A stretch of DNA of 23,288 nt from Candidatus Aenigmatarchaeota archaeon (GTDB taxonomy: Archaea; Aenigmatarchaeota; Aenigmatarchaeia; QMZP01). The translations under genes and the position numbers were made by a program. The stretch is from assembly GCA_039091855.1 (NCBI GenBank), contig JAWCLA010000004.1:14045-37332 (forward strand), given 5' to 3'. Below, in pieces: positions 7,799 to 23,288 of this stretch (position 1 is its first letter; each line of letters begins with the position of its first letter). The notes below the pieces were generated by a model. That model had not been told where the DNA came from, did not search any database, and saw nothing but the letters and a program-made list of their open reading frames with translations.

Positions 7799-9109
7799 AT
7801 GGTCTACTTCAGTCAGCTTAAGGGCAGGCCTGTGTATGACTCGGAAGGGAAGAACATAGGCAGCCTTATTGATATGGTTTTTGTTGACGGAGAGAAATAT
7901 GCCGAGATTTCCCATTTGGTTTATTCTTACAAAAAAACACGCAGAAAGATATCCTGGAGCTTTGTGAGGGAGCTTAAGGACAACCCTGAAACACCTGGGC
8001 TGGATGCTGACATCTACCTGAATGCGCCTGAAAGGGAGCTTAACCCAACCTTTGAGACAGAGAGGGAGTTTCTCGTGAGCAAGCTTATCGACAAGCAGAT
8101 AATAGATGTCGACGGGGTTAAGGTGGTGAGGGTAAACGATGTTCTTCTTGGAAAGATTGAGGGCAAGTTCTGCATTGCGGCTGTATGCGTCGGTGCAAAG
8201 AGCTTCCTTCGCTCGCTTGCAGGAGAGAAGCTTGCGGATTTGATAGGTGGCAAGTTCAGGGAAAAGATAATACCTTGGGAATATGTGGAACCTCTTGACC
8301 CTGACATACAGAAGCTTCACATAAGGCTCAGAAGAAGCAAGATAGCGGACATGCACCCGGCTGACATTGCCGACATTATGGAGGACCTGACTTACAAGGA
8401 GAGGGAACTCATTTTCAATGCATTGGACAGGGAAAAGGCAGCGAAGACAATAATAGAGTCGGAGCCTGAGATACAGAAGTCTTTCCTTGCGGGAATGAAG
8501 GTCAACAAGATAGTGGAAATCCTTGAGAGCATGCCGCCAAACCACGCGGCTGACATAATAAGCATACTTCCTGCTGACATGAGGGAAAACATACTTGCTA
8601 ACATGAAGCAGGAAAAAAGCAGGAAGGTAAGGGAGATAATGAAGTATCCCGAAGATTCCGTTGGGTCGATAATGCACACGGAGTTCGTTTCCGTTCCCTC
8701 GGACTTCAAGGCTCAGAAGGCGATAGAGCTTTTGAGAAAGACAAAACCGAGCTCTGACAAGATGTACAGGATTTATGTCGTGGATAATGAGGGAAAGCTT
8801 CTCGGGTTTTTGCCGCTTGGCTCCCTCGTGACAGCGCCTGCCAACGAGAGAATAGAGAACCTTATGAAAACGAGAATAATAAAGCTTTTAACAACCACAT
8901 CAAAGCAGGATGCCGCAAATGCCCTTGCAAAGTATAACCTTTTTGTACTTCCCGTGGTTGACGAAAACGGGGTATTGAAAGGCATAATAAGGGCTGATGA
9001 CGTAATATCAGAAGTTATGCCAAAGTCCTGGAAAAAAAGAAGGTTTGTGGCAAGAAGGACAAGGAAATTCAACGGAAGGTTTAACTCAAGCTCTGGCAGG
9101 AAGAGCTGA
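7799..9109 (+). CDS. Soluble MgtE-like cytosolic protein (PRC-barrel-like, MgtE N-domain, CBS pair; no TM domain)
   Basis: LKGRPVYDSEGKNIG, DKQIIDVDGVKVVRVND, MHPADIADIMEDL, YPEDSVGSIMHTEF, IYVVDNEGKLLG, LPVVDENGVLKGIIRADD. Confidence 0.88.
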   Translation: MVYFSQLKGRPVYDSEGKNIGSLIDMVFVDGEKYAEISHLVYSYKKTRRKISWSFVRELKDNPETPGLDADIYLNAPERELNPTFETEREFLVSKLIDKQIIDVDGVKVVRVNDVLLGKIEGKFCIAAVCVGAKSFLRSLAGEKLADLIGGKFREKIIPWEYVEPLDPDIQKLHIRLRRSKIADMHPADIADIMEDLTYKERELIFNALDREKAAKTIIESEPEIQKSFLAGMKVNKIVEILESMPPNHAADIISILPADMRENILANMKQEKSRKVREIMKYPEDSVGSIMHTEFVSVPSDFKAQKAIELLRKTKPSSDKMYRIYVVDNEGKLLGFLPLGSLVTAPANERIENLMKTRIIKLLTTTSKQDAANALAKYNLFVLPVVDENGVLKGIIRADDVISEVMPKSWKKRRFVARRTRKFNGRFNSSSGRKS

Positions 9110-9150
9110 TGATTTTTAAATAATTGTTTTTCATAAATTTGCGGGTGGTT

Positions 9151-10401
9151 GTGCTGAAGTTTAAAAACAGGAGGAACAGGATTCTGCTCTTTCTTGCAGT
9201 CATAGGTCCGGGATTGATAACGGCAAATGTGGATAATGATGCAGGTGGTATAACCACCTATTCTGTTGCCGGTGCACAGTTCGGATACTCAATCCTGTGG
9301 ACGCTGATACCGATAACCTTTCTGCTCATAATAGTTCAGGAGATGTGCGCGAGGATGGGGGCTGTGACAGGTAAAGGCCTTTCGGACCTCATAAGGGAAA
9401 GCTTCGGGGTAAGGATAACATTTATTGTGATGATCGGGCTTCTCGTTGCTAATTTTGCAACCACGGTTTCCGAGTTTGCAGGAATAGCTGCGGCAGGGGA
9501 GATTTTCGGGACAAGCAAATATATAATTGTGCCGATATGCGCCGTGATTGTTGTTTCCCTGATATTGAAGTCGAACTACAGGTTTCTCGAGAGGATACTG
9601 CTTCTTATGATTGTTTTCTATTTTTCTTACATAATATCCGGTATAATGGCAAACCCTGACTGGGGAGAGGTGGCAAGGCAGACCGTCACGCCTTCATTCA
9701 CCTTCAGCTCTGCTTACCTGATAGTTCTGATTGGCGTCATAGGAACCACAATAACCCCGTGGATGCAGTTCTACCTGCAGTCCTCGATAGTTGAGAAGGG
9801 AATAAGGGCGCAGGATTACAAGTATTCCAGGATAGAGATTATTCTTGGTTGCATAATGACTGATGTCATTGCCTTCTTCATAATAGTTGCCTGCGCAGCA
9901 ACGCTTTTCTCAGCAGGCATATCAATAAACTCTGCAGCTGACGCGGCGCTCGCATTGGAACCGCTTGCAGGAAAATTGGCTAAGGAACTTTTTGCCCTGG
10001 GATTTTTCGGCGCAGCGCTTTTCGGCGCTTTCATACTTCCCCTGTCAACAGCATTTTATATCTGTGAAGCGTTTGGTTGGGAATCAGGGGTCAGCAAGAA
10101 GCTTGGCGAGGCAAAGCAGTTTTATGCGGTCATAGGTTTGATGGTTATGTTATCTGTTGGGGTGATTCTCGTTCCAAACGTTCCGCTCGTTCAGCTAATG
10201 CTTACATCACAGGTCATCAACGGTCTGGTTCTTCCTGTAATACTTGTTGCCATAGTGAAGATAATAAATAACGAGGGCATAATGGGGGAGTATGTGAACT
10301 CAAAGTTCTACAACTTTGTCGTCTACCTCTCAACAGGAATAATAATAGCTCTTTCTGTCCTTATGGTTATAACAACCGTTTGGCCGGGTATTTTTGGGTG
10401 A
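9151..10401 (+). CDS. NRAMP/SLC11-related divalent metal transporter (NRMT-type, probably Mg2+)
   Basis: About 11 hydrophobic helices. GPGLITANVDNDAGGITTYS replaces DPGN; also QEMCARMGAVTGKGL and GTTITPWMQF. Likely GTG start at 9151 after SD gggtgg. Confidence 0.9.
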   Translation: MLKFKNRRNRILLFLAVIGPGLITANVDNDAGGITTYSVAGAQFGYSILWTLIPITFLLIIVQEMCARMGAVTGKGLSDLIRESFGVRITFIVMIGLLVANFATTVSEFAGIAAAGEIFGTSKYIIVPICAVIVVSLILKSNYRFLERILLLMIVFYFSYIISGIMANPDWGEVARQTVTPSFTFSSAYLIVLIGVIGTTITPWMQFYLQSSIVEKGIRAQDYKYSRIEIILGCIMTDVIAFFIIVACAATLFSAGISINSAADAALALEPLAGKLAKELFALGFFGAALFGAFILPLSTAFYICEAFGWESGVSKKLGEAKQFYAVIGLMVMLSVGVILVPNVPLVQLMLTSQVINGLVLPVILVAIVKIINNEGIMGEYVNSKFYNFVVYLSTGIIIALSVLMVITTVWPGIFG

Positions 10402-12268: not shown

Positions 12269-13126
12269 ATGTTGAGCCTTTTCAGGAAAAAGCAAACTCA
12301 GGAAAGCGGTTGCGGCTTAAACATAACCAATTTTGCAAATCCTGGGGATTCTGTCCTTAGGATTGCTTCAAGGGGGGTTTTATATTCTTCTGAAAACAGC
12401 GGCGTCATAGACGCGCTTGGTTATATGCTTAGCGGTATCAGAAGGCTGCCTGTTGTGGACGAGAACGAGAGGCTGACAGGAATTGTCTCCACAACAGATG
12501 TTTTGGACTTCATAGGAGGAGGGGAAAAGCACAAGCTTTTCAGCAACACAGGGCTCAGCGCAAAGGTCAGGAAAATAATGTCTCCCTGCATTCATTTCGT
12601 TTCAGCAACCGACAGCATCCCTGTTGCTTTGGAAATATTCAAGGAAAGCGGAAAACCCATACAACCCGTTATGGAAGATAAAAAACTTGTTGGAGTGATT
12701 ACAGAAACAGACATAGTAAATCTCATGTCAAAGAGGACAGGGGTGAAGGTTTCTGACATAATGACAAGAAAACCGATAACAGTTGACAGGAACAAGTCTG
12801 TTTATGATGTTGCAAGAATGCTTTGCAGGGGACCTTACAGGAGATTGCCTGTGGTGAACAATGGCGTGCTTTTGGGGATTGTCACGCCTTACGACATTCT
12901 CTCTCACCTTAACTCAAAGGAGGCGCTCAACATGCTAAGGTTCGAAAACTCCCCCATAAAAGAGATAATGAGAAAGGATGTCGCTTACATCAGGCCTGAT
13001 GCCGACATTTACGAGGCAGTTGCAATGATGAAGATTAAAAAGGTCTCAGGCCTTCCTGTTGTTGACGAGGACGCTGACCTTCTCGGAATGATAACAAAGA
13101 GGGACATAATAAACGCAATGGGGTGA
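12269..13126 (+). CDS. CBS-domain protein (four CBS motifs)
   Basis: IRRLPVVDE..LTGIVSTTD, QPVMED.KLVGVITETD, YRRLPVVNN..LLGIVTPYD, SGLPVVDE..LLGMITKRD. Confidence 0.92.
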   Translation: MLSLFRKKQTQESGCGLNITNFANPGDSVLRIASRGVLYSSENSGVIDALGYMLSGIRRLPVVDENERLTGIVSTTDVLDFIGGGEKHKLFSNTGLSAKVRKIMSPCIHFVSATDSIPVALEIFKESGKPIQPVMEDKKLVGVITETDIVNLMSKRTGVKVSDIMTRKPITVDRNKSVYDVARMLCRGPYRRLPVVNNGVLLGIVTPYDILSHLNSKEALNMLRFENSPIKEIMRKDVAYIRPDADIYEAVAMMKIKKVSGLPVVDEDADLLGMITKRDIINAMG

Positions 13127-13130
13127 GAAA

Positions 13131-13325
13131 TTGCCTCTTCCAGGAAGATTCAAGTGCATATGTGGTGAAGAGCACAGGATTATATTCAGGACATACATTG
13201 ATACGGGTGAAACGAGAGTTCCTGTGGGCTTGGGGTGCAAAAAATACAGGAAAGTCATTGAAAATGCTGAACGGGGTTTTTACAAAAAGGGCAAGCTGGA
13301 GTGTTTTCTTTACTACCATGAATAA
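13131..13325 (+). CDS. Small Cys-containing hypothetical protein (64 aa), possible zinc binder
   Basis: TTG start after SD ggggtga. FKCICGEEH motif plus two further Cys. Its stop overlaps the start region of the Toprim gene, suggesting coupling. Confidence 0.6.
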   Translation: MPLPGRFKCICGEEHRIIFRTYIDTGETRVPVGLGCKKYRKVIENAERGFYKKGKLECFLYYHE

Positions 13326-13872
13326 AAAAATTGACATAGAGGAAATAGAGTCGGTTTTGGAGAAGCTGAAAGGCAACATTCTTATTGTGGAGGGAAAGAA
13401 GGACTATGACGCATTGAGGGGCTTGGGATTGACCCACATAGTCAAGGTGAACAGCAGACATGTTATTAAAGTTGTTGAGGAGGCAGTTTCCCTCAGGAAA
13501 AAGCATAAAAATAGGCAGGTTATAGTATTGACAGACTTTGACAGGGAAGGGCGAAAGCTGGCTTCCAGAATCACGCTCTTACTGCAAAGCCGTAAGATTC
13601 ATGCTAACTCAAGAATAAGGCGTGATGTGATGAGATTGGGAATATCAAGAATTGAGGAAATGTCCTGCCTGAGGGCTGAAATTTTAACAGCCAGGGACGG
13701 GACGGTTAGCATAATTGATGAAAATCCAAAGGAGTGTGATGATTATGGCGAAGCTTGCACCGACTTCAACAAAATATGTCATAAAGGCAAGGATAAAGGC
13801 AAAGGGTGTGATAGAAAAGCCCGACGTGATAGGGGCGATATTCGGGCAAACCGAAGGGCTTCTCGGTTCTGA
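13318..13872 (+). CDS. Small Toprim-domain protein (primase-like / RNase M5-like)
   Basis: ILIVEGKKDYDALRGLG and VIVLTDFDREGRKLA Toprim motifs. Start taken at ATG 13318; the upstream part of the ORF call is probably not translated. Confidence 0.85.
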   Translation: MNKKIDIEEIESVLEKLKGNILIVEGKKDYDALRGLGLTHIVKVNSRHVIKVVEEAVSLRKKHKNRQVIVLTDFDREGRKLASRITLLLQSRKIHANSRIRRDVMRLGISRIEEMSCLRAEILTARDGTVSIIDENPKECDDYGEACTDFNKICHKGKDKGKGCDRKARRDRGDIRANRRASRF

Positions 13873-15022
13873 CCTGGACTTGAGGGAGTTACAGAGAACG
13901 GGAAGGATAGGCAGAATAGAAGTAAACATAAAGTCAAACCAGGGAAATTCTGAGGGAGAGATTATAATCCCTTCTTCACTTGATTCTGCGGAAACCGCTC
14001 TGATAGCAGCAACGCTGGAAACGATTGAGAGGATAGGACCCTGCATAGCGACAGTTAAGCTCGAGAACGTAGAGGACATGAGGTCAGAGAAAAGGAAATA
14101 TGTCGTCGAAAAGGCAAAGGAGATTCTAAAGAACCTTGTCGAGGCAGGAGTCCCGAGCGCTGCGGAAATATCCGAACAGATAAAGGAGGCTGTGAGGACT
14201 CACGAGGTAACGAGTTACCACGGATTGCCTGCTGGCCCGAACATAACAGACTCCGACAACATAATAGTGGTGGAGGGCAGGGCAGATGTTGTGAACCTGC
14301 TTAAATACGGAATAAGGAATGTCATTGCCATAGAAGGAACTTCTGTACCTCCTGTGATATCGGACCTTTCAAGGGAAAAGGTAGTCACTCTTTTTGTTGA
14401 TGGTGACAGGGGAGGTCAGCTAATACTTAAAGAGGTTCTCCAGCTGGCTGACATAGATTATGTGGCAACGGCTCCGCAAGGAAAGGAGGTTGAGGAGCTC
14501 ACCAAAAAGGAGGTTTACAAGGCTCTCAGGGAGAAGGTTTCTGCAGAGCAGTTCAAGATGGAGCTCAGGCCTGATTTGGAAAGGAACGGAAGGTTTGATG
14601 TAAGTGAATATCAACCACAGGCAGAGCAAAAGGTGGAATCATTCGAGCAGAGGCAAAGAACGCAGGGAAGGAGGGAGCAAAAACCAAAAGTTGAGATAAC
14701 TCCTGAGCAGAGAGAGCTTTTTTCCAAGACGCTTGAAGAGCTTGTTGGCACAAGGGCTGCCTGCATATTTGATTCTGAAAACCAAGTGTTAGGGAAGGTG
14801 CCTGTCAGCGAGCTTATGGAAGCCCTGAAAACAGTTGAAAGCCCGTATGCAATAGTGTTTGACGGAAAGGTTGACTTCAGGCTCAACTCTATGGCAAAGA
14901 GAAAGGGAGTGAAAATCCTTGTCGGGATGGAGAAGGAAAGGTTTTCAACCTCCCTTTTGGTAATGGACAGGAAGGATATGGAAATAGTTGCTACTAAAAA
15001 TGCTGAAGAGAATAAAGCTTGA
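13746..15022 (+). CDS. dnaG: Archaeal DnaG (primase-like, exosome-associated)
   Basis: KYVIKA...EKPDVIGAIFGQTEGLLG.DLDLRELQRTGRIGRIEV, IIVVEGRADV, FVDGDRGG. ATG 13746. Confidence 0.96.
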
Positions 15023-15174
15023 GTGCACAGGACTTCTTTGCCTTTTCTTTTATTTTTAGTGATCCATAGGAAACCGCACCATCAATCCCCTTTCCAGAAT
15101 TCACGTGGAATAGTGTGTTAAGGATATCACACATTAATTGAATAACCTGTTAATGATGCGAAGGTTATCTTGCG

Positions 15175-15369
15175 CTACTTCTTGAACTGCCCGACTGTCT
15201 TTACCAAATCCTTGTGGGTTAGAAAAAGAGAACGGCAGCAGTATCTCTCGAGACCGAGCTCGTCCAGGACCTTTTGCGGATTCCTTCCCTTCTTCACTTC
15301 CTTCTGGTATGTTTCCCAAAGATGACCTACCGGTTTCCCGCAGGTCATGCATCTTATAGGTATTATCAT
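15175..15369 (-). CDS. rpoN: DNA-directed RNA polymerase subunit N (Rpo10)
   Basis: MIIPIRCMTCGKPV...LDELGLERYCCRSLFLTH. Confidence 0.96.
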   Translation of the reverse strand: MIIPIRCMTCGKPVGHLWETYQKEVKKGRNPQKVLDELGLERYCCRSLFLTHKDLVKTVGQFKK

Positions 15370-15481
15370 ATGCTTCGCCTTGTGATAGCTCACATTATTA
15401 TTGTTTACCTTTCCGACTTGAAGGAGAAGTTCCTTCGGAACTTCCACTTAACCTTCGCCTTGTGACAATTCAATTTTGTCA
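15370..15481 (-). promoter_or_regulatory. Conserved leader element, copy 1 (upstream of rpoN)
   Basis: 15465->15405 is 48/61 identical without gaps to 16729-16789. Hairpin gaagttcc-gaa-ggaacttc. TCACAAGGCGAAG occurs twice (15465->15453 and 15385->15373). Confidence 0.75.
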
Positions 15482-15553
15482 AAACAGCATCTTTCTTGCC
15501 TTGGGTTCCATCTGCCTTATTGGAGGTACCATAATGACTTTTTGTTTTTGCAT

Positions 15554-15598
15554 TTTATATTTATAAAGTTTTCAGAGAAAGGATTAATCAGTTTAAAA
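15554..15598. promoter_or_regulatory. Divergent promoters for rpoN (-) and rpa (+)
   Basis: Minus strand gaaaactttataaatataaa (15573->15554). Plus strand tttaaaa at 15592-15598, about 23 nt before the rpa ATG. Confidence 0.5.
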
Positions 15599-15620
15599 CA
15601 ATTCAAATTGTGTGTTGGTT

Positions 15621-16628
15621 ATGTTTTCGCTTGAAGAGATTGTGGAGAAAATCTGCGAGCACACAGGGATGACACAGAAGAAGGTTTTACAGCTGATAGA
15701 CGAAAAGGAAGAAGAGCTTTCAGGACTTGTTTCAAGGGAGGGTGCCGCTTATATCGTTGCAAGGGAACTCGGGATAAGCCTTCTAAGGGAGACAAAAAGG
15801 CAGCTGAAGATAAAGAACCTCACAGACGGGCTGAGGTCTGTTGACCTCGTGGCAAGGATCATAGGAATATCCGAAATAAGGACATTTGAGAAGGAGGAGA
15901 GGAAAGGCAGCGTGGTCGGGCTTATTTTGGGTGACGAAACAGGTATGGTAAGGCTTCCTTTATGGAATGAGGAAGCTGACATAGTTTCTGACCTTGGGCT
16001 GAAAGAGGGCGACGTCATAAGGATAACAAGGGGATTTGTCAAGATGGACAACAGGGGAAACATCGAGCTAAGGATAGGCAGGGGAAAGATGGAGAAGGTT
16101 GAGGAGGAGGTAAATCTTCCAGAAGTGAACGAGATGAGCGGAAGCCTTGTTCCACAAAGAAAGCTGCTTTCCGAAGTCAAGGAGGGTGATATCGTTGAGA
16201 CAAGGGCTTGCATTGTTCAGCTTTTCAGGAAAAATCCCTTCTTCGAGGTTTGCTCCGAATGCGGTATGAGAATGAAGCCCAGGGCAGGAAAGCTGGTTTG
16301 CGACGAGCACGGGACAGTCAAGCCTGACTACCAGATTGTTATTTCAGGCGTGATAGATGACGGATACGGAAATGTCCGTGTGGTGTTTTTCAGGGAATTG
16401 GCAGAAAGGCTTTTCGGAAAAACTGCTGCTGAACTAAGGGCATTGGCGCAGGAGAAGGTTGATCCTCTGATTATTTACGACTTGTTTGATGTGTTAGGAA
16501 AGGATTACATAATTGCTGGAAGGGTAAGAAAGAACGAGCTCACCGAGAATCTTGAGCTTATAGCTAACAGGTTGGAGGAGCCTGACATAAGAAAGGAGTT
16601 TGAGCTTCTGTTAAAGGAAGTTTCATAG
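15621..16628 (+). CDS. rpa: Replication protein A (OB-folds plus zinc finger)
   Basis: N-terminal helical domain (GLVSREGAAYIVARELG), OB-fold LGDETGMVRLPLW, C-x2-C...C-x2-H finger, IDDGYGNVRVVFF. Confidence 0.9.
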   Translation: MFSLEEIVEKICEHTGMTQKKVLQLIDEKEEELSGLVSREGAAYIVARELGISLLRETKRQLKIKNLTDGLRSVDLVARIIGISEIRTFEKEERKGSVVGLILGDETGMVRLPLWNEEADIVSDLGLKEGDVIRITRGFVKMDNRGNIELRIGRGKMEKVEEEVNLPEVNEMSGSLVPQRKLLSEVKEGDIVETRACIVQLFRKNPFFEVCSECGMRMKPRAGKLVCDEHGTVKPDYQIVISGVIDDGYGNVRVVFFRELAERLFGKTAAELRALAQEKVDPLIIYDLFDVLGKDYIIAGRVRKNELTENLELIANRLEEPDIRKEFELLLKEVS

Positions 16629-16692
16629 ATATTTAAGATTTAAATACAACATCAAATTGTGGGTTGCATTTATATTTGTTGGATTGCCAAAA

Positions 16693-16819
16693 ATGGAAAT
16701 TAAAAGGTTTGAGAAACCAAGTTTTCCATCACGAGGCAAAATTTAATTGGAAGCTTCGAAGGAGCTTCTCCGTTAAGTCATAAGGGTAATGACAGCCTGA
16801 ATTGTCACAGGCGAGGCAT
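16693..16819 (+). promoter_or_regulatory. Conserved leader element, copy 2 (upstream of radA)
   Basis: Homologous to the rpoN leader. Hairpin gaagcttc-gaa-ggagcttc (16750-16768). Ends TCACAGGCGAGGCAT-ATG. Confidence 0.75.
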
Positions 16820-17818
16820 ATGCCAAGGCTTTCAAAGGAAAAGGACATAGAGGAAGAGCAGGAAAAATCCACAATAGAGGATGAGCTCAGGAGCATACCA
16901 GGAATAGGGGAAAAAACAATAGAAAAGCTCAGGGAAAGCGGTTATGACAACCTTATGGCTATAGCCGCCGCGATGGCTTCTGACCTAGCTGCTGCTTCTG
17001 GTATTGGTGAGGAGACTGCAAACAAGATAATAAATGCCGCAAGAAGCAAGCTAAAAATGGGGTTTGAGCCCGCTAGCGAGGTATTGAAGAAGAGGGAAAG
17101 CATAGCTAAAATAACAACAGGCTCAAAGGCTCTCGATAGTCTTCTGGGAGGAGGCGTGGAAACGCAGGCAATACTGGAAGCCCATGGAGCGTTCGGCTCT
17201 GGGAAATCACAGCTTGCCCACCAGCTCGCTGTAAATGTACAGCTTCCACGTGAAAGAGGCGGGCTGGAGGGAAAGGCGGTATTCATAGACACAGAGCAGA
17301 CATTCAGGCCCGAAAGGATTGTTGACATGGCAAAGGCATTGGGCATTGACCCCAACAAGGCGCTGGAAAACGTGTTCGTTGCAAGGGCCTACAACTCAGA
17401 CCACCAGATTCTTCTTGCTGAAAAGGCAGAGGAGGTCATAAAGAGGGAAAACGTAAAGCTTATTGTTATAGACTCCCTTACTGCATCTTTCAGGAGCGAC
17501 TATATGGGCAGGGGAACCCTTGCGAACAGGCAGCAGAAGCTGAACCGACACCTTCACCACTTGCAGAGGATGGCAGACGTGTACAACCTTGCTGTTTATG
17601 TGACTAACCAAGTGATGGCAAGGCCTGACATACTTTTCGGCGACCCGACCGCGCCGATAGGGGGACACATAGTCGGGCATCAGGCAACATACAGGCTCTA
17701 CCTGAGAAAAAGCAAGGAAAACAAGAGAATAGCAAAGCTCATAGACTCGCCGTGGCTTCCCGAGGGAGAAACAGTTTTCACAGTAGGGACAGAGGGAATA
17801 AGGGACGTCGAGGATTAG
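16820..17818 (+). CDS. radA: DNA repair and recombination protein RadA
   Basis: N-terminal HhH (IPGIGEKT), [15 protein letters not shown], Walker [23 protein letters not shown], Walker B LIVIDS, TNQV, GGHIVGH. Confidence 0.97.
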
Positions 17819-21849: not shown

Positions 21850-23007
21850 TTATTTTCCTGACAGTGCCAAAAATACCAGTAAAAGTGAGAACATTCCTGC
21901 TATCTCAAAACCTATCGCTATACTTTGCGAAGAATATAGAAGCGTTATTGTGGTCAAAATCACAAAAACAGTCTTTCCGGCACCGAGCCAGAAGTCCCTG
22001 AAAACCACCCAGTTGAGCATATTCCCTTTCTTTGCCTTTTCGCAGAATTCAACATAGATGGGAACGCTTATTATTGTAGTGAATATTCCAGCAAGCATTG
22101 ACGCAAGAAATGCCTCAACAGGAGTCTCGATGAAAAGTCTTACTATGCAGGTAAGGGTGTATCCGAGAGAGCCGTATATTAGCATATTCCTGCGCCTTTG
22201 TGCGCTTGCGCTGAACTTTCCAACAAAAAGGGTGAGTATCGCTATCCCTGCACCGAAAAACGAGGCCGACAGTCCGGTGAAAAGCAAACCGAATTTCTGG
22301 TATACAAAAATGTTCCAGAGCAGAAAATCGTTTGCGAATATCACGCCCTGCACTATGAAAAATGCAAAGGATTTCCTCTCAAGGAAAAGCCAGGACTGCC
22401 TCATCCTAAGGCTGAAGCTCTTCTTGTAGTCCTTTGTGAGCAGGAATGGAATTTGGGAAATCGCTATCAGGGAGATAACTATTATAAAAACCTGAGAGAA
22501 GCCGATTTTGGACAGGAGGAAAGCTCCTATAAATGGAGCGACGGTTGCAGATATCTGAGGAAGGGCTGTAAGATAGCCAACCTGCACGGCGCTGTTTACT
22601 ATGTCCGAGTTCTTGACGAATTCTGCGTTGGTGGCAACCCAGTAAAGAATTGCCGAGAAGCCACCGAGAAGAGCAACGAAAAAAATGAAATCCGTTATGT
22701 AATTGACAAAGAAAAGCAAGGAGAAAAAAACTATTAGCATAGGAGCCCTGTATATTATCGTGTGCTTGAAGCCAATCCTTGCAGATATCTCTGCAGCTAA
22801 TGGGGTGAGCAAAAACATTGCACCCCAGTAAACCAGCATAAAGGAGAAGGATGTAACAATTGTGAACCCGTTCTCTATCAGGTATATGGGAATGAAGATG
22901 CTTATCAGTGAAACCGCAAAGGTCTCTATCACCTGGTTGAAATATATCTCTCCCATCTCGTCCTTCAGACGGGTTATGTTGAAAAGGGTTCTCAATTGTC
23001 TGTACAT
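21850..23007 (-). CDS. MFS transporter
   Basis: About 12 hydrophobic helices. SLISIFIPIYL, ARIGFKH loop motif, APFIGAFLL. Confidence 0.88.
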   Translation of the reverse strand: MYRQLRTLFNITRLKDEMGEIYFNQVIETFAVSLISIFIPIYLIENGFTIVTSFSFMLVYWGAMFLLTPLAAEISARIGFKHTIIYRAPMLIVFFSLLFFVNYITDFIFFVALLGGFSAILYWVATNAEFVKNSDIVNSAVQVGYLTALPQISATVAPFIGAFLLSKIGFSQVFIIVISLIAISQIPFLLTKDYKKSFSLRMRQSWLFLERKSFAFFIVQGVIFANDFLLWNIFVYQKFGLLFTGLSASFFGAGIAILTLFVGKFSASAQRRRNMLIYGSLGYTLTCIVRLFIETPVEAFLASMLAGIFTTIISVPIYVEFCEKAKKGNMLNWVVFRDFWLGAGKTVFVILTTITLLYSSQSIAIGFEIAGMFSLLLVFLALSGK

Positions 23008-23288
23008 ACACTTCGCCTTTTTAAAAACCAGGCTCCTTAGAAAAACACATAATGAGTCTTCCTTTCTAATAATTTATTGAAAAACAGAAAGGAAGGAGCC
23101 TCATAACTATTAAGGTTAACCATATAATAAAGCTGATTCCTTCGCTTCAACTCAATTATCTATGCAGTTTTTGTTCAGACAGTTTTTGGAAAGACGATTT
23201 ATTATATTGTCTAAAGTCTTCAATCGCTACAGGTTCCGAAAAATATAAACTCTATCAATTTTTATGGAGGGTTATAAACAGATCCAAC

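Follow-up and report, generated by a model that had tools for sequence, protein, structure and literature searches.

Bacteria have well-described interspersed structured repeats of the REP, BOX and MIRU types. REPs are usually found as inverted pairs, for the most part 3' of genes, and they flank a RAYT gene. BOX elements of Streptococcus pneumoniae are modular intergenic sequences with a tandem internal module and stable predicted RNA hairpins, often near gene starts. The PATEs of archaea and cyanobacteria are small, non-autonomous hairpin MITEs derived from IS200/IS605 insertion sequences (IS), with end hairpins as in the parent IS. The mycobacterial MIRU, in its original description, is said to measure from tens of nucleotides (nt) to about 100 nt and to form direct tandem arrays at tens of loci. 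One review presents MIRU as a mobile unit that inserts at start codons and, through a coupled small open reading frame (ORF), maintains translation of the downstream gene (PMC12548453). Among the literature matches listed, we found no archaeal description of such an interspersed structured repeat. Here we describe one from a member of Candidatus Aenigmatarchaeota, two copies of which precede rpoN and radA in a 23,288-nt stretch of DNA (the window; C33:14045-37332 of the source genome G000, a 689-kb assembly of 38 contigs and 84% completeness). It is probably a dispersed, modular and spreading structured repeat of leaders and intercistronic gaps that brings its own ribosome-binding site, and not a dedicated regulator of rpoN and radA.

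MIRU is the described system that the repeat most resembles in function, and by analogy the repeat may work like MIRU without being a member of that family. Both form variable-copy tandem arrays, co-oriented with transcription, in operon gaps and at start codons, and both would carry a built-in device that keeps the downstream gene translated. This device is a small ORF coupled by a -4 overlap in MIRU, whereas here it would be a Shine-Dalgarno (SD)-like box. The unit lengths of 67, 80 and ~120 nt are not multiples of three and the junctions show no consistent ATGA/TGATG overlap; there is thus no coupled small ORF, and the resemblance is one of working and not of membership. The units differ from MIRU also in their covarying hairpin, their DPANN archaeal host and the lack of sequence similarity.

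Other families come less close. The modular build, tandem internal module, hairpins and positions near gene starts recall BOX, which is bacterial, unrelated in sequence and without a fixed start-codon junction or an SD-like terminal box. PATEs share with the repeat their small size, their hairpins and an archaeal genome that also encodes an IS200/IS605 TnpA, but they form no sense-oriented tandem arrays at start codons, and the end hairpins of the resident IS200/IS605 elements are not shared with the repeat, so that membership was rejected. As in REP, BIME and REPIN elements (REPINs are treated in PMC8049555 and PMC3184786), a short imperfect palindrome is repeated in extragenic DNA, in tens of copies that would be transcribed with their neighbours, and G000 has a Y1 transposase gene. 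The units, however, stand 5' of genes in direct tandem, the end hairpins of the Y1 genes are unrelated to theirs and no units lie near these genes; with no inverted pairs and no repeat-flanked RAYT gene, the REP/REPIN-RAYT family does not accommodate them. Nor do MITEs, given the absence of terminal inverted repeats and target-site duplication. The TAACTGA leader repeats of Beggiatoaceae are likewise direct repeats in leaders just before starts, but they are 7-nt words without hairpins (PMC4679880).

A hairpin repeat unit before rpoN and radA

The first-pass annotation of this DNA had proposed a structured leader of no known family, shared by rpoN and radA and controlling both genes. Its gene identities are right: rpoN (RNA polymerase subunit N, 64 aa; 15175-15369, minus strand) matches PF01194 (E 3.7e-27) and radA (332 aa; 16820-17818, plus strand) matches PF08423 (E 8.3e-93). 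The closest relatives of the G000 RadA are all in metagenome-assembled genomes of Candidatus Aenigmatarchaeota, and the locus was found in DNA runs from hot-spring metagenomes and in no RNA run. The gapless 61-nt match between the two leaders (48/61 identical) was recovered both by alignment and by a repeat search, in which it is the longest inverted pair in 14800-17400 (15405-15465 against 16729-16789, 61 nt, 79%). The same search returned a 14-nt inverted pair at the rpoN and radA ATGs, and the ending TCACA(A)GGCGA(A/G)GCAT-ATG, annotated as common to both leaders, is seen in the alignment.

Both copies are full units of one repeat, as scored with a covariance model (R1) built from 33 G000 units (alignment A2; 31 distinct rows), and their likeness is far beyond chance. 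The unit in the rpoN leader (15405-15465, minus strand; 77.4 bits, E 2.9e-16) has the box TCACAAGGCGAAG at 15453-15465 and the hairpin GAAGTTCC-GAA-GGAACTTC at 15426-15444, followed by TCCTTCAAGTC and an A-rich tail. After it comes a terminal partial unit on the same strand (15370-15385), made of the box TCACAAGGCGAAG (15373-15385) and CAT, and directly after this the rpoN ATG (15369-15367), with 5 nt between GGCGA and the ATG. The unit in the radA leader (16729-16790, plus strand; 69.8 bits, E 1.5e-14) has a degenerate box TCACGAGGCAAAA and the hairpin GAAGCTTC-GAA-GGAGCTTC (16750-16768, plus) with one T.G wobble, then TCCGTTAAGTC and the tail. Its terminal box, with a 1-nt deletion, is TCACAGGCGAGG followed by CAT (16805-16819, plus) and abuts the radA ATG at 16820. 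Between the two hairpins, as had been annotated, one pair changes from T-A to C-G on both sides and another from C-G to T.G, which pairs on the sense strand only.

The family is much larger than these two copies. R1 gave 40 matches in a search of G000 and a unit profile (nhmmer) gave 47 at E<=1; the matches form 22 head-to-tail arrays of 1-6 full units each. The 13-mer TCACAAGGCGAAG, with at most one mismatch, occurs 37 times in G000 (reversed control, 0), and in a short-word blastn search many contigs gave near-identical leader copies, among them one on C13 with 96% identity over 100 nt. Read depth in run X1 was 45-96 over the rpoN unit versus 4-6 in its flanks, and in four public assemblies contigs break at the unit, with joints going back 80 and 68 nt; depth peak, breaks and backward joints are as expected of a tandem multicopy repeat. 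One X1 contig spans the radA copy.

Units are 54-120 nt long, mostly 67 or 80 nt, and have a constant order: the box TCACAAGGCGAAG (in general form UCACAAGGCGAAG), about 8 nt, the hairpin, T-CC-GT(C/T)AAGTC and a tail. The hairpin (module A) has the form (T)GGAAG, 4-5 variable base pairs around a GNA loop and CTTC, and is followed by TCCGT. Three forms of the tail give periods of 67 nt (ending in TTTGTATGCAAG), 80 nt (A/C-rich, ending in AATTG) and ~120 nt, the last of which holds a second hairpin, module B, with a GACGAC-loop containing CCAACATAAC, then GTCGTC and TTTCCAAA. Module B has about 20 occurrences; in many cases it borders an array on the 5' side and closely follows a TATA box. Stacking follows the direction of transcription, and the last unit of a stack is partial, consisting of the box only, then 3 nt and the ATG.

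The helix is conserved in both its pairing and its variation. In A2, 99.6% of the 229 cells of the 8-bp helix are paired, with changes on both sides at three pairs (43 cells); the observed pairing or covariation score was reached in none of 500 shuffles, and slid-partner controls paired at 33-57%. Five other genomes, without G000, supplied 30 matches (29 distinct rows), with 189 of 189 cells paired and 5/7 pairs changed on both sides; this alignment was fitted to the model, which favours structure. The annotated structured element with compensatory changes therefore holds in G000 and in its relatives. Five hairpins have a G.T wobble on the sense strand of the element versus none on the other strand, and the B stem GACGGC/GTCGTC has the same strand asymmetry. 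Sense-strand loops are GAA, GTA, GGA or AAA, with one unit flipped to TTC. When folded against shuffles, the rpoN and radA leaders gave z = -2.8 and z = -2.1, and the antisense strand of the rpoN leader gave z = -2.2; energy alone therefore does not pick the strand.

The unit matches no Rfam family. In the window there was no match at gathering score, and permissive scans of 15300-16900 and of four arrays returned only two unrelated matches (E 0.72-0.82), in agreement with the annotation. By eye, no K-turn, bulge-helix-bulge or C/D-box motif was seen in the hairpin. A CRISPR array was ruled out, since the sequence from one box to the next is not a unique spacer but is conserved from unit to unit and from locus to locus. 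Mimicry of the 16S 3' end, suggested by the (T)AACAAGG common to the box and the h44-h45 linker and by the likeness of CUUCUCC to the anti-SD, was judged from the sequences and dropped as too weak.

The window itself contains two full A units, two terminal boxes, one box-like ribosome-binding site and one degenerate B module. The box-like site, TAAAAAGGCGAAG followed by TGT and without a hairpin (23011-23023, minus; R1 12 bits, E 0.18), precedes the ATG of a 385-aa ORF (21850-23007). In the same leader lies the degenerate B copy, a hairpin and then TCGTCTTTCCAAA (23180-23225, minus), just downstream of a TATA box.

Placement at start codons and turnover among relatives

In G000, 14 of the 22 arrays end in a box that is separated by 3 nt from the ATG of a sense ORF with a length of 57 aa or more. 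These ORFs encode, among others, aEF-1beta, a MinD/ParA-like ATPase, L37ae, FttA/aCPSF1, S8e, the products of rpoN and radA, a tRNA-binding-domain protein and an NrdR-fused reductase (NrdR-RNR); four have no confident Pfam match, small hydrophobic or membrane proteins among them. The box alone stands before two further G000 genes, for a rhomboid protease and for a basic protein which we take to be S12. Two arrays, at C33:1-235 and C38:22258-22391, are cut by contig ends. Gene orientations relative to the arrays come from a crude home-made ORF map, on which every array between co-directional genes matches their orientation, except a copy in a tRNA intron. For four arrays, only 3-31 nt separate the start of the array from the stop codon of a co-directional upstream gene, which leaves no room for a promoter. 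As an observation on the side, in C12:15290-15620 a three-unit array is followed by AAG where ATG is expected, and the downstream frame has a pilin-like N-terminus (KGQ / LVFEFIVAVIVF). This frame could start at an in-frame TTG inside the last unit, in which case part of the repeat may be translated as signal peptide.

The sense orientation directly before start codons, as first read for rpoN and radA, is thus borne out for most arrays. What did not survive is the notion of a system shared by these two genes, as the unit precedes at least 14 unrelated ORFs in G000. Copies scattered regardless of gene orientation had been named as a sign of a mobile repeat; we do find a dispersed, apparently mobile repeat, but its placement is not blind to orientation.

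We compared G000 with its four congeners, that is genomes of the same genus (G001, G003 and G004 among them), with G062 and G024, which belong to two other genera, and with G006, the congener of G062. Of the 91 genomes of the order, six have R1 matches: G000 (40), the four congeners (4, 3, 2 and 1) and G062 (8-10). The other 85, including G006, have none. A stricter pattern, CTTCTCCGT-N15-45-AGGYGAA, occurs 26, 4, 3, 6 and 0 times in the five genomes of the genus (controls, 0) and 0-1 times in each of 36 other genomes. In the congeners, whose gene names are readings of translations, the unit is single and stands before L13, L14e, L15e, Spt4, acylphosphatase and rpoN (G003), and before the orthologue of a G000 small membrane protein gene. 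G024 has 13 box matches, 11 with a hairpin-(T/C)CCGT element upstream of the box; eight of these elements are before ORF starts (L2 included), and of the other three one immediately precedes a tRNA gene, one precedes what we read as a possible tRNA and one is inside a 23S rRNA insertion. Its two other box matches are a CCGT segment without clear hairpin and a chance match. We assign the family to a single Aenigmatarchaeota genus; two or more further genera have variants of it.

Whether an orthologous site is filled does not track relatedness. The radA site is filled in G000 only and empty in 4/4 congeners, and the S8e site is also filled in G000 only. At rpoN the unit is found in G000 and G003, while the site is empty in G001, G004 and G062. 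The aEF-1beta site is filled in G000 and G062, the L37ae site in G000 and, in variant form, in G001, and the L2 site in G024 and G062 but not in G000. This turnover, together with the 96% identity between loci, points to recent spread and tandem amplification and not to an old fixed regulon. Co-control of rpoN and radA is likewise unsupported, since the radA unit is missing from all four congeners and the rpoN unit from two of the three congeners in which the site was found. Absence in relatives, which had been expected to speak against a shared regulatory system, applies in part: each congener has 1-4 R1 matches, before other genes.

In each of the five genomes of the genus, radA neighbours an RPA-like OB-fold gene (15612-16628, plus, in the window) of the same direction, and the two likely form a conserved operon. 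In G000 this is split by a 191-nt gap, made of an extra spacer (16629-16728, plus) with the TATA-like boxes ATTTAAATA and TTTATATT and of the unit, versus gaps of about 22-39 nt in the congeners.

Several observations were made around these genes. In the congeners, the RPA-like gene has a leader of ~100 nt, with another covarying hairpin (GAAGGNGTC-loop-GACNCCTTC) and a stretch, GCGCCTTCCTCCAGCCAGCAGG, that is conserved in 3/4 of them and contains an anti-SD-like CCTCC; G000 is without this leader, and its RPA-like gene looks leaderless, with GTTTAAAA at -29. Just downstream of the rpoN 3' end, on the opposite strand, two Toprim-domain ORFs of 249 aa (13123-13872) and 435 aa (13715-15022) lie in different frames and overlap by ~160 nt, and may be a split or duplicated DnaG-type primase. 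In G024 (C29:2600-5092, locus L017) the RadA match is split into residues 9-130 and residues 130-330, with about 1.5 kb between the two parts, inside one 856-aa open frame, which suggests an intein in RadA.

Some copies lie with stable RNA genes. In G000 an antisense copy is found in the first intron of a two-intron tRNA-Met(CAT) gene; its terminal box begins at intron base 1, and the 'ATG' that it abuts is the complement of the anticodon. The G024 element before a tRNA gene ends in the box, TGT and ATG, the G of which is the first base of the tRNA gene. The tRNA-Met gene itself (C11:12051-12349; locus L023, 202-500) has one intron of 168 nt after the anticodon loop and another, of 57 nt, in the T-loop. 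The intact gene is missed by ARAGORN and Rfam; once the two inferred introns are cut out in silico, ARAGORN recognises a tRNA-Met of 74 nt. In the 689 kb of G000, ARAGORN finds one tRNA (four with its intron option), and most G000 tRNA genes are probably intron-rich, split or otherwise non-canonical. The G003 16S gene (locus L128), of ~2.0 kb, has near its 3' end an insertion with the hairpin GGAAGTTGC-GAA-GCAACTTC, and similar sense-strand hairpins stand upstream and downstream of this gene. The 23S gene of G024 (locus L134) has a ~50-60-nt insertion carrying a segment that runs from TCCGT to TCGCAAGGCGAAG.

These distributions bear on whether the repeat could be a post-transcriptional regulon after all, one in which the hairpin is the site of a single RNA-binding protein or nuclease that co-regulates translation or decay of ~20 genes, rpoN and radA among them, in a widening of the annotated idea. 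Such a factor would find conserved parts to hold, namely the GG...U-CC foot, the GNA loop and the UCCGU flank, and it would make sense of a helix kept by compensatory changes across three genera, of the conserved single-stranded box and UCCGU, of the sense orientation before start codons and of the many targets among information-processing genes, some of which carry the unit in distant genomes (aEF-1beta in G000 and G062; L2 in G024 and G062). We nevertheless consider a regulon unlikely. Target sets vary between congeners and orthologous sites are often empty, leaders have 1 to 6 copies in no pattern, copies are also found ahead of a tRNA gene, within rRNA insertions and, in antisense, within a tRNA intron, and no candidate binding protein was identified.

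Possible mode of spread

If the repeat is indeed a spreading leader module, it would have reached many unrelated genes and then been amplified in tandem in G000. A candidate route is insertion or recombination aimed at a start-codon-proximal site, followed by slippage or unequal crossing-over. No terminal inverted repeats or target-site duplications were seen at the borders of arrays, and the 13-mer that borders a unit on either side belongs to the unit itself; it is missing from the empty rpoN site of G001. As the copies in the tRNA-Met intron and before the G024 tRNA also abut ATG, the ATG junction may stem partly from the mode of insertion or recombination, besides translational selection; we regard this as a lead and not as a finding.

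An IS200/IS605-type transposase is a candidate mobiliser. PF01797 (Y1_Tnp) has two matches in G000, at C37:7094-7453 and 9001-9324 (locus L130), and none in the four congeners, which lack the amplification. On this basis the units could be REP/RAYT- or PATE-like DNA elements, that is, hairpins of single-stranded DNA mobilised by a Y1 (HUH) transposase, with their RNA features as by-products; this would account for the burst in G000. The sense-only G.T wobbles and the GNA triloops are as compatible with folded single-stranded DNA as with RNA, and the one loop flipped from GAA to TTC in a sense-oriented unit resembles an event at the DNA level. We find this explanation quite unlikely, for both Y1 genes are damaged (one has an in-frame TAG, the other is without its N-terminal strand), no TnpB was found and no A or B unit flanks either gene. 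The hairpins that flank the first copy, CCCCGTCAT-TT-ATGACGGGG and CACCGCCAT-TT-ATGGCGGGG, are unrelated to the A and B hairpins, and the Y1 transposase was not adopted as mobiliser since its end hairpins do not match the repeat. Moreover, the orientation of units tracks transcription on both strands of single contigs and not one replication strand, and the element is present in congeners without a detected Y1 gene, as well as in G062, where no Y1 search was made. The ~6 kb around the Y1 genes are full of small ORFs and may be a mobile island.

Two pattern scans of viral contigs gave only single matches at chance level, and R1 gave only box-level matches, of 19-20 bits, on L159-L161. One viral contig (L193) has four 15-mer matches, yet these are not the element. 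A metagenome scan gave at least 120 matches, and among those listed none has the hairpin; this is about the number expected by chance, by our own estimate.

Leader, probable ribosome-binding site and promoter

Whether the arrays are leaders or promoters depends on where transcription starts in this genome. Around 259 G000 genes, TATA-like words peak at -30..-26 from the start (66, versus 10-27 in other bins), and from their positions before ORFs a consensus was derived: 48 sequences have TTTATA(A/T)A with the ATG about 22 nt later, and therefore leaderless starts. Promoter-proximal genes of G000 are thus leaderless, with TTTATA(A/T)A at -30..-25. The tails of the units lack this consensus, while canonical TATA boxes lie 20-35 nt upstream of some G000 arrays (C1, C36) and of three G024 elements; for these reasons we read the arrays as transcribed leaders or intercistronic spacers, the last box of which would serve as ribosome-binding site. 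A TATA box region, CATTTTATATTTATAAAG, lies between rpoN and the RPA-like gene (15551-15568), ~85 nt upstream of the unit; it is conserved in the congeners and is likely the rpoN promoter.

The 3' end of 16S rRNA was read from the congener G003 (GGATCACCTCCT), the G000 gene being absent from the assembly. Words enriched upstream of G000 starts are AGGTG, GGTGA and GTGAT (4-4.5 fold), and GGTGA peaks 4 nt and GGCGA 5 nt from start codons. AGGCGA pairs with 3'-UCCACU-5' of the congener at 5/6 positions, and at the element-free rpoN site of G001 the SD GGAGGA stands at the position of the box in G000. Since AGGCGA is the normal SD of the genome, AGGUGA, with one mismatch, at the same distance of 4-5 nt from the start codon, the terminal box is most likely the ribosome-binding site of the downstream gene. 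With the box placed at the SD site, control at translation initiation, as the first-pass annotation had it, is possible.

The unit would accordingly lie in transcribed non-coding DNA, in 5' leaders and in gaps inside operons, as an RNA made of the box, a hairpin of GGAAG, variable stem, GNA triloop and CUUC, then U-CC-GU and a weakly structured A/C-rich tail. The hairpins would fold locally, leaving box and tail free, and may stabilise or insulate the message by shielding the 5' part of the mRNA. The repeat is probably tolerated because its own ribosome-binding site comes along.

One alternative has transcription starting near the ATG itself. The unit would then be a mobile promoter module, its A-rich tail a TATA-like box, the mRNA leaderless and the arrays stacks of promoters. 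Putative mobile promoters are defined by the recurrence of one upstream sequence at genes that are not homologous (PMC3575422), and the repeat shares this pattern. Leaderless starts dominate G000, with TATA at -30..-25, and the tails do bring A-rich words near this place, AATAATAAT at -33..-25 in 80-nt units and TTTGTATG at about -28..-21 in 67-nt units. We hold a promoter module to be very unlikely: the units differ from such promoters in lacking the consensus shared by the 48 leaderless genes, no A/T-rich box of any kind is present in the radA tail (GGGTAATGACAGCCTG) or in the short units of G003 and G024, true TATA boxes stand upstream of whole arrays, and strand-specific wobbles and helix covariation have no role in a promoter. 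An operator regulon, with the inverted repeat as palindromic site of a dimeric transcription factor at or after the transcription start, is extremely improbable, as perfect palindromes with the conserved outer half-sites GGAAG/CTTCC, near predicted starts in some loci, are set against an inner stem and arm spacing that vary freely while pairing is kept, stems of 8-10 bp in G000 but longer stems and loops in G062, several copies 3-31 nt after an upstream stop between co-directional genes and far from visible promoters, and G.T wobbles that would make mismatched half-sites.

Several points weigh against the repeat being a spreading leader module with its own ribosome-binding site. Mobility is read from the distribution of the copies, which bear no transposition signature in the form of terminal inverted repeats or target-site duplications, and the counts of orientation share the crudeness of the ORF map. 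Six of the 22 arrays are off the canonical junction: four depart from it (the antisense tRNA-intron copy, an array that lies between convergent genes, one that has AAG where the ATG should be and one that ends 22 nt ahead of a 21-aa ORF) and two are ambiguous (C36 ends 14 nt before a likely start, and C37 ends before an 18-aa ORF). The copies in non-translated contexts, that is, a tRNA leader, a 23S insertion, the 16S region and the tRNA-Met intron, argue either for a role of the repeat besides translation or against any function for the host. That the arrays are transcribed, and from which start sites, is deduced from sequence. AGGCGA puts a C opposite A in the duplex with the anti-SD and would be a weaker SD than AGGUGA. 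Finally, the A-rich tail of 80-nt units falls at -33..-25 from the ATG, where TATA boxes sit, and weak promoter activity of this tail is possible.

A bolder form of the spreading-module interpretation is also conceivable, although we would not expect it to hold. Because translation does not explain the two ATG-abutting copies in the tRNA-Met intron and before the G024 tRNA, the module might be a small, non-coding mobile cassette that homes to the 5' side of (T)ATG and installs a hairpin and an SD-like box there. It would turn leaderless or operon-coupled genes into leadered, SD-led genes, and radA, with a 22-39-nt operon junction in the congeners versus a 191-nt leader in G000, would be a case of this. 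If this were true, and if one factor bound the hairpin foot, ~20 mostly informational genes of a reduced DPANN genome would be wired into one post-transcriptional regulon.

In a 0.7-Mb symbiont-type genome, about 20 gene leaders are built from stacked copies of two hairpin modules. For annotation this means that such repeats break assemblies at gene starts, and that two visible copies can mimic a gene-specific riboregulator. The repeat shows how a sequence can spread without damaging its target genes. As the host is mostly leaderless, the leaders with 0, 1, 2 and up to 6 units, and the filled and empty sites, form a natural series on the effects of leader, hairpin and weak SD, which bears on archaeal translation and mRNA stability.

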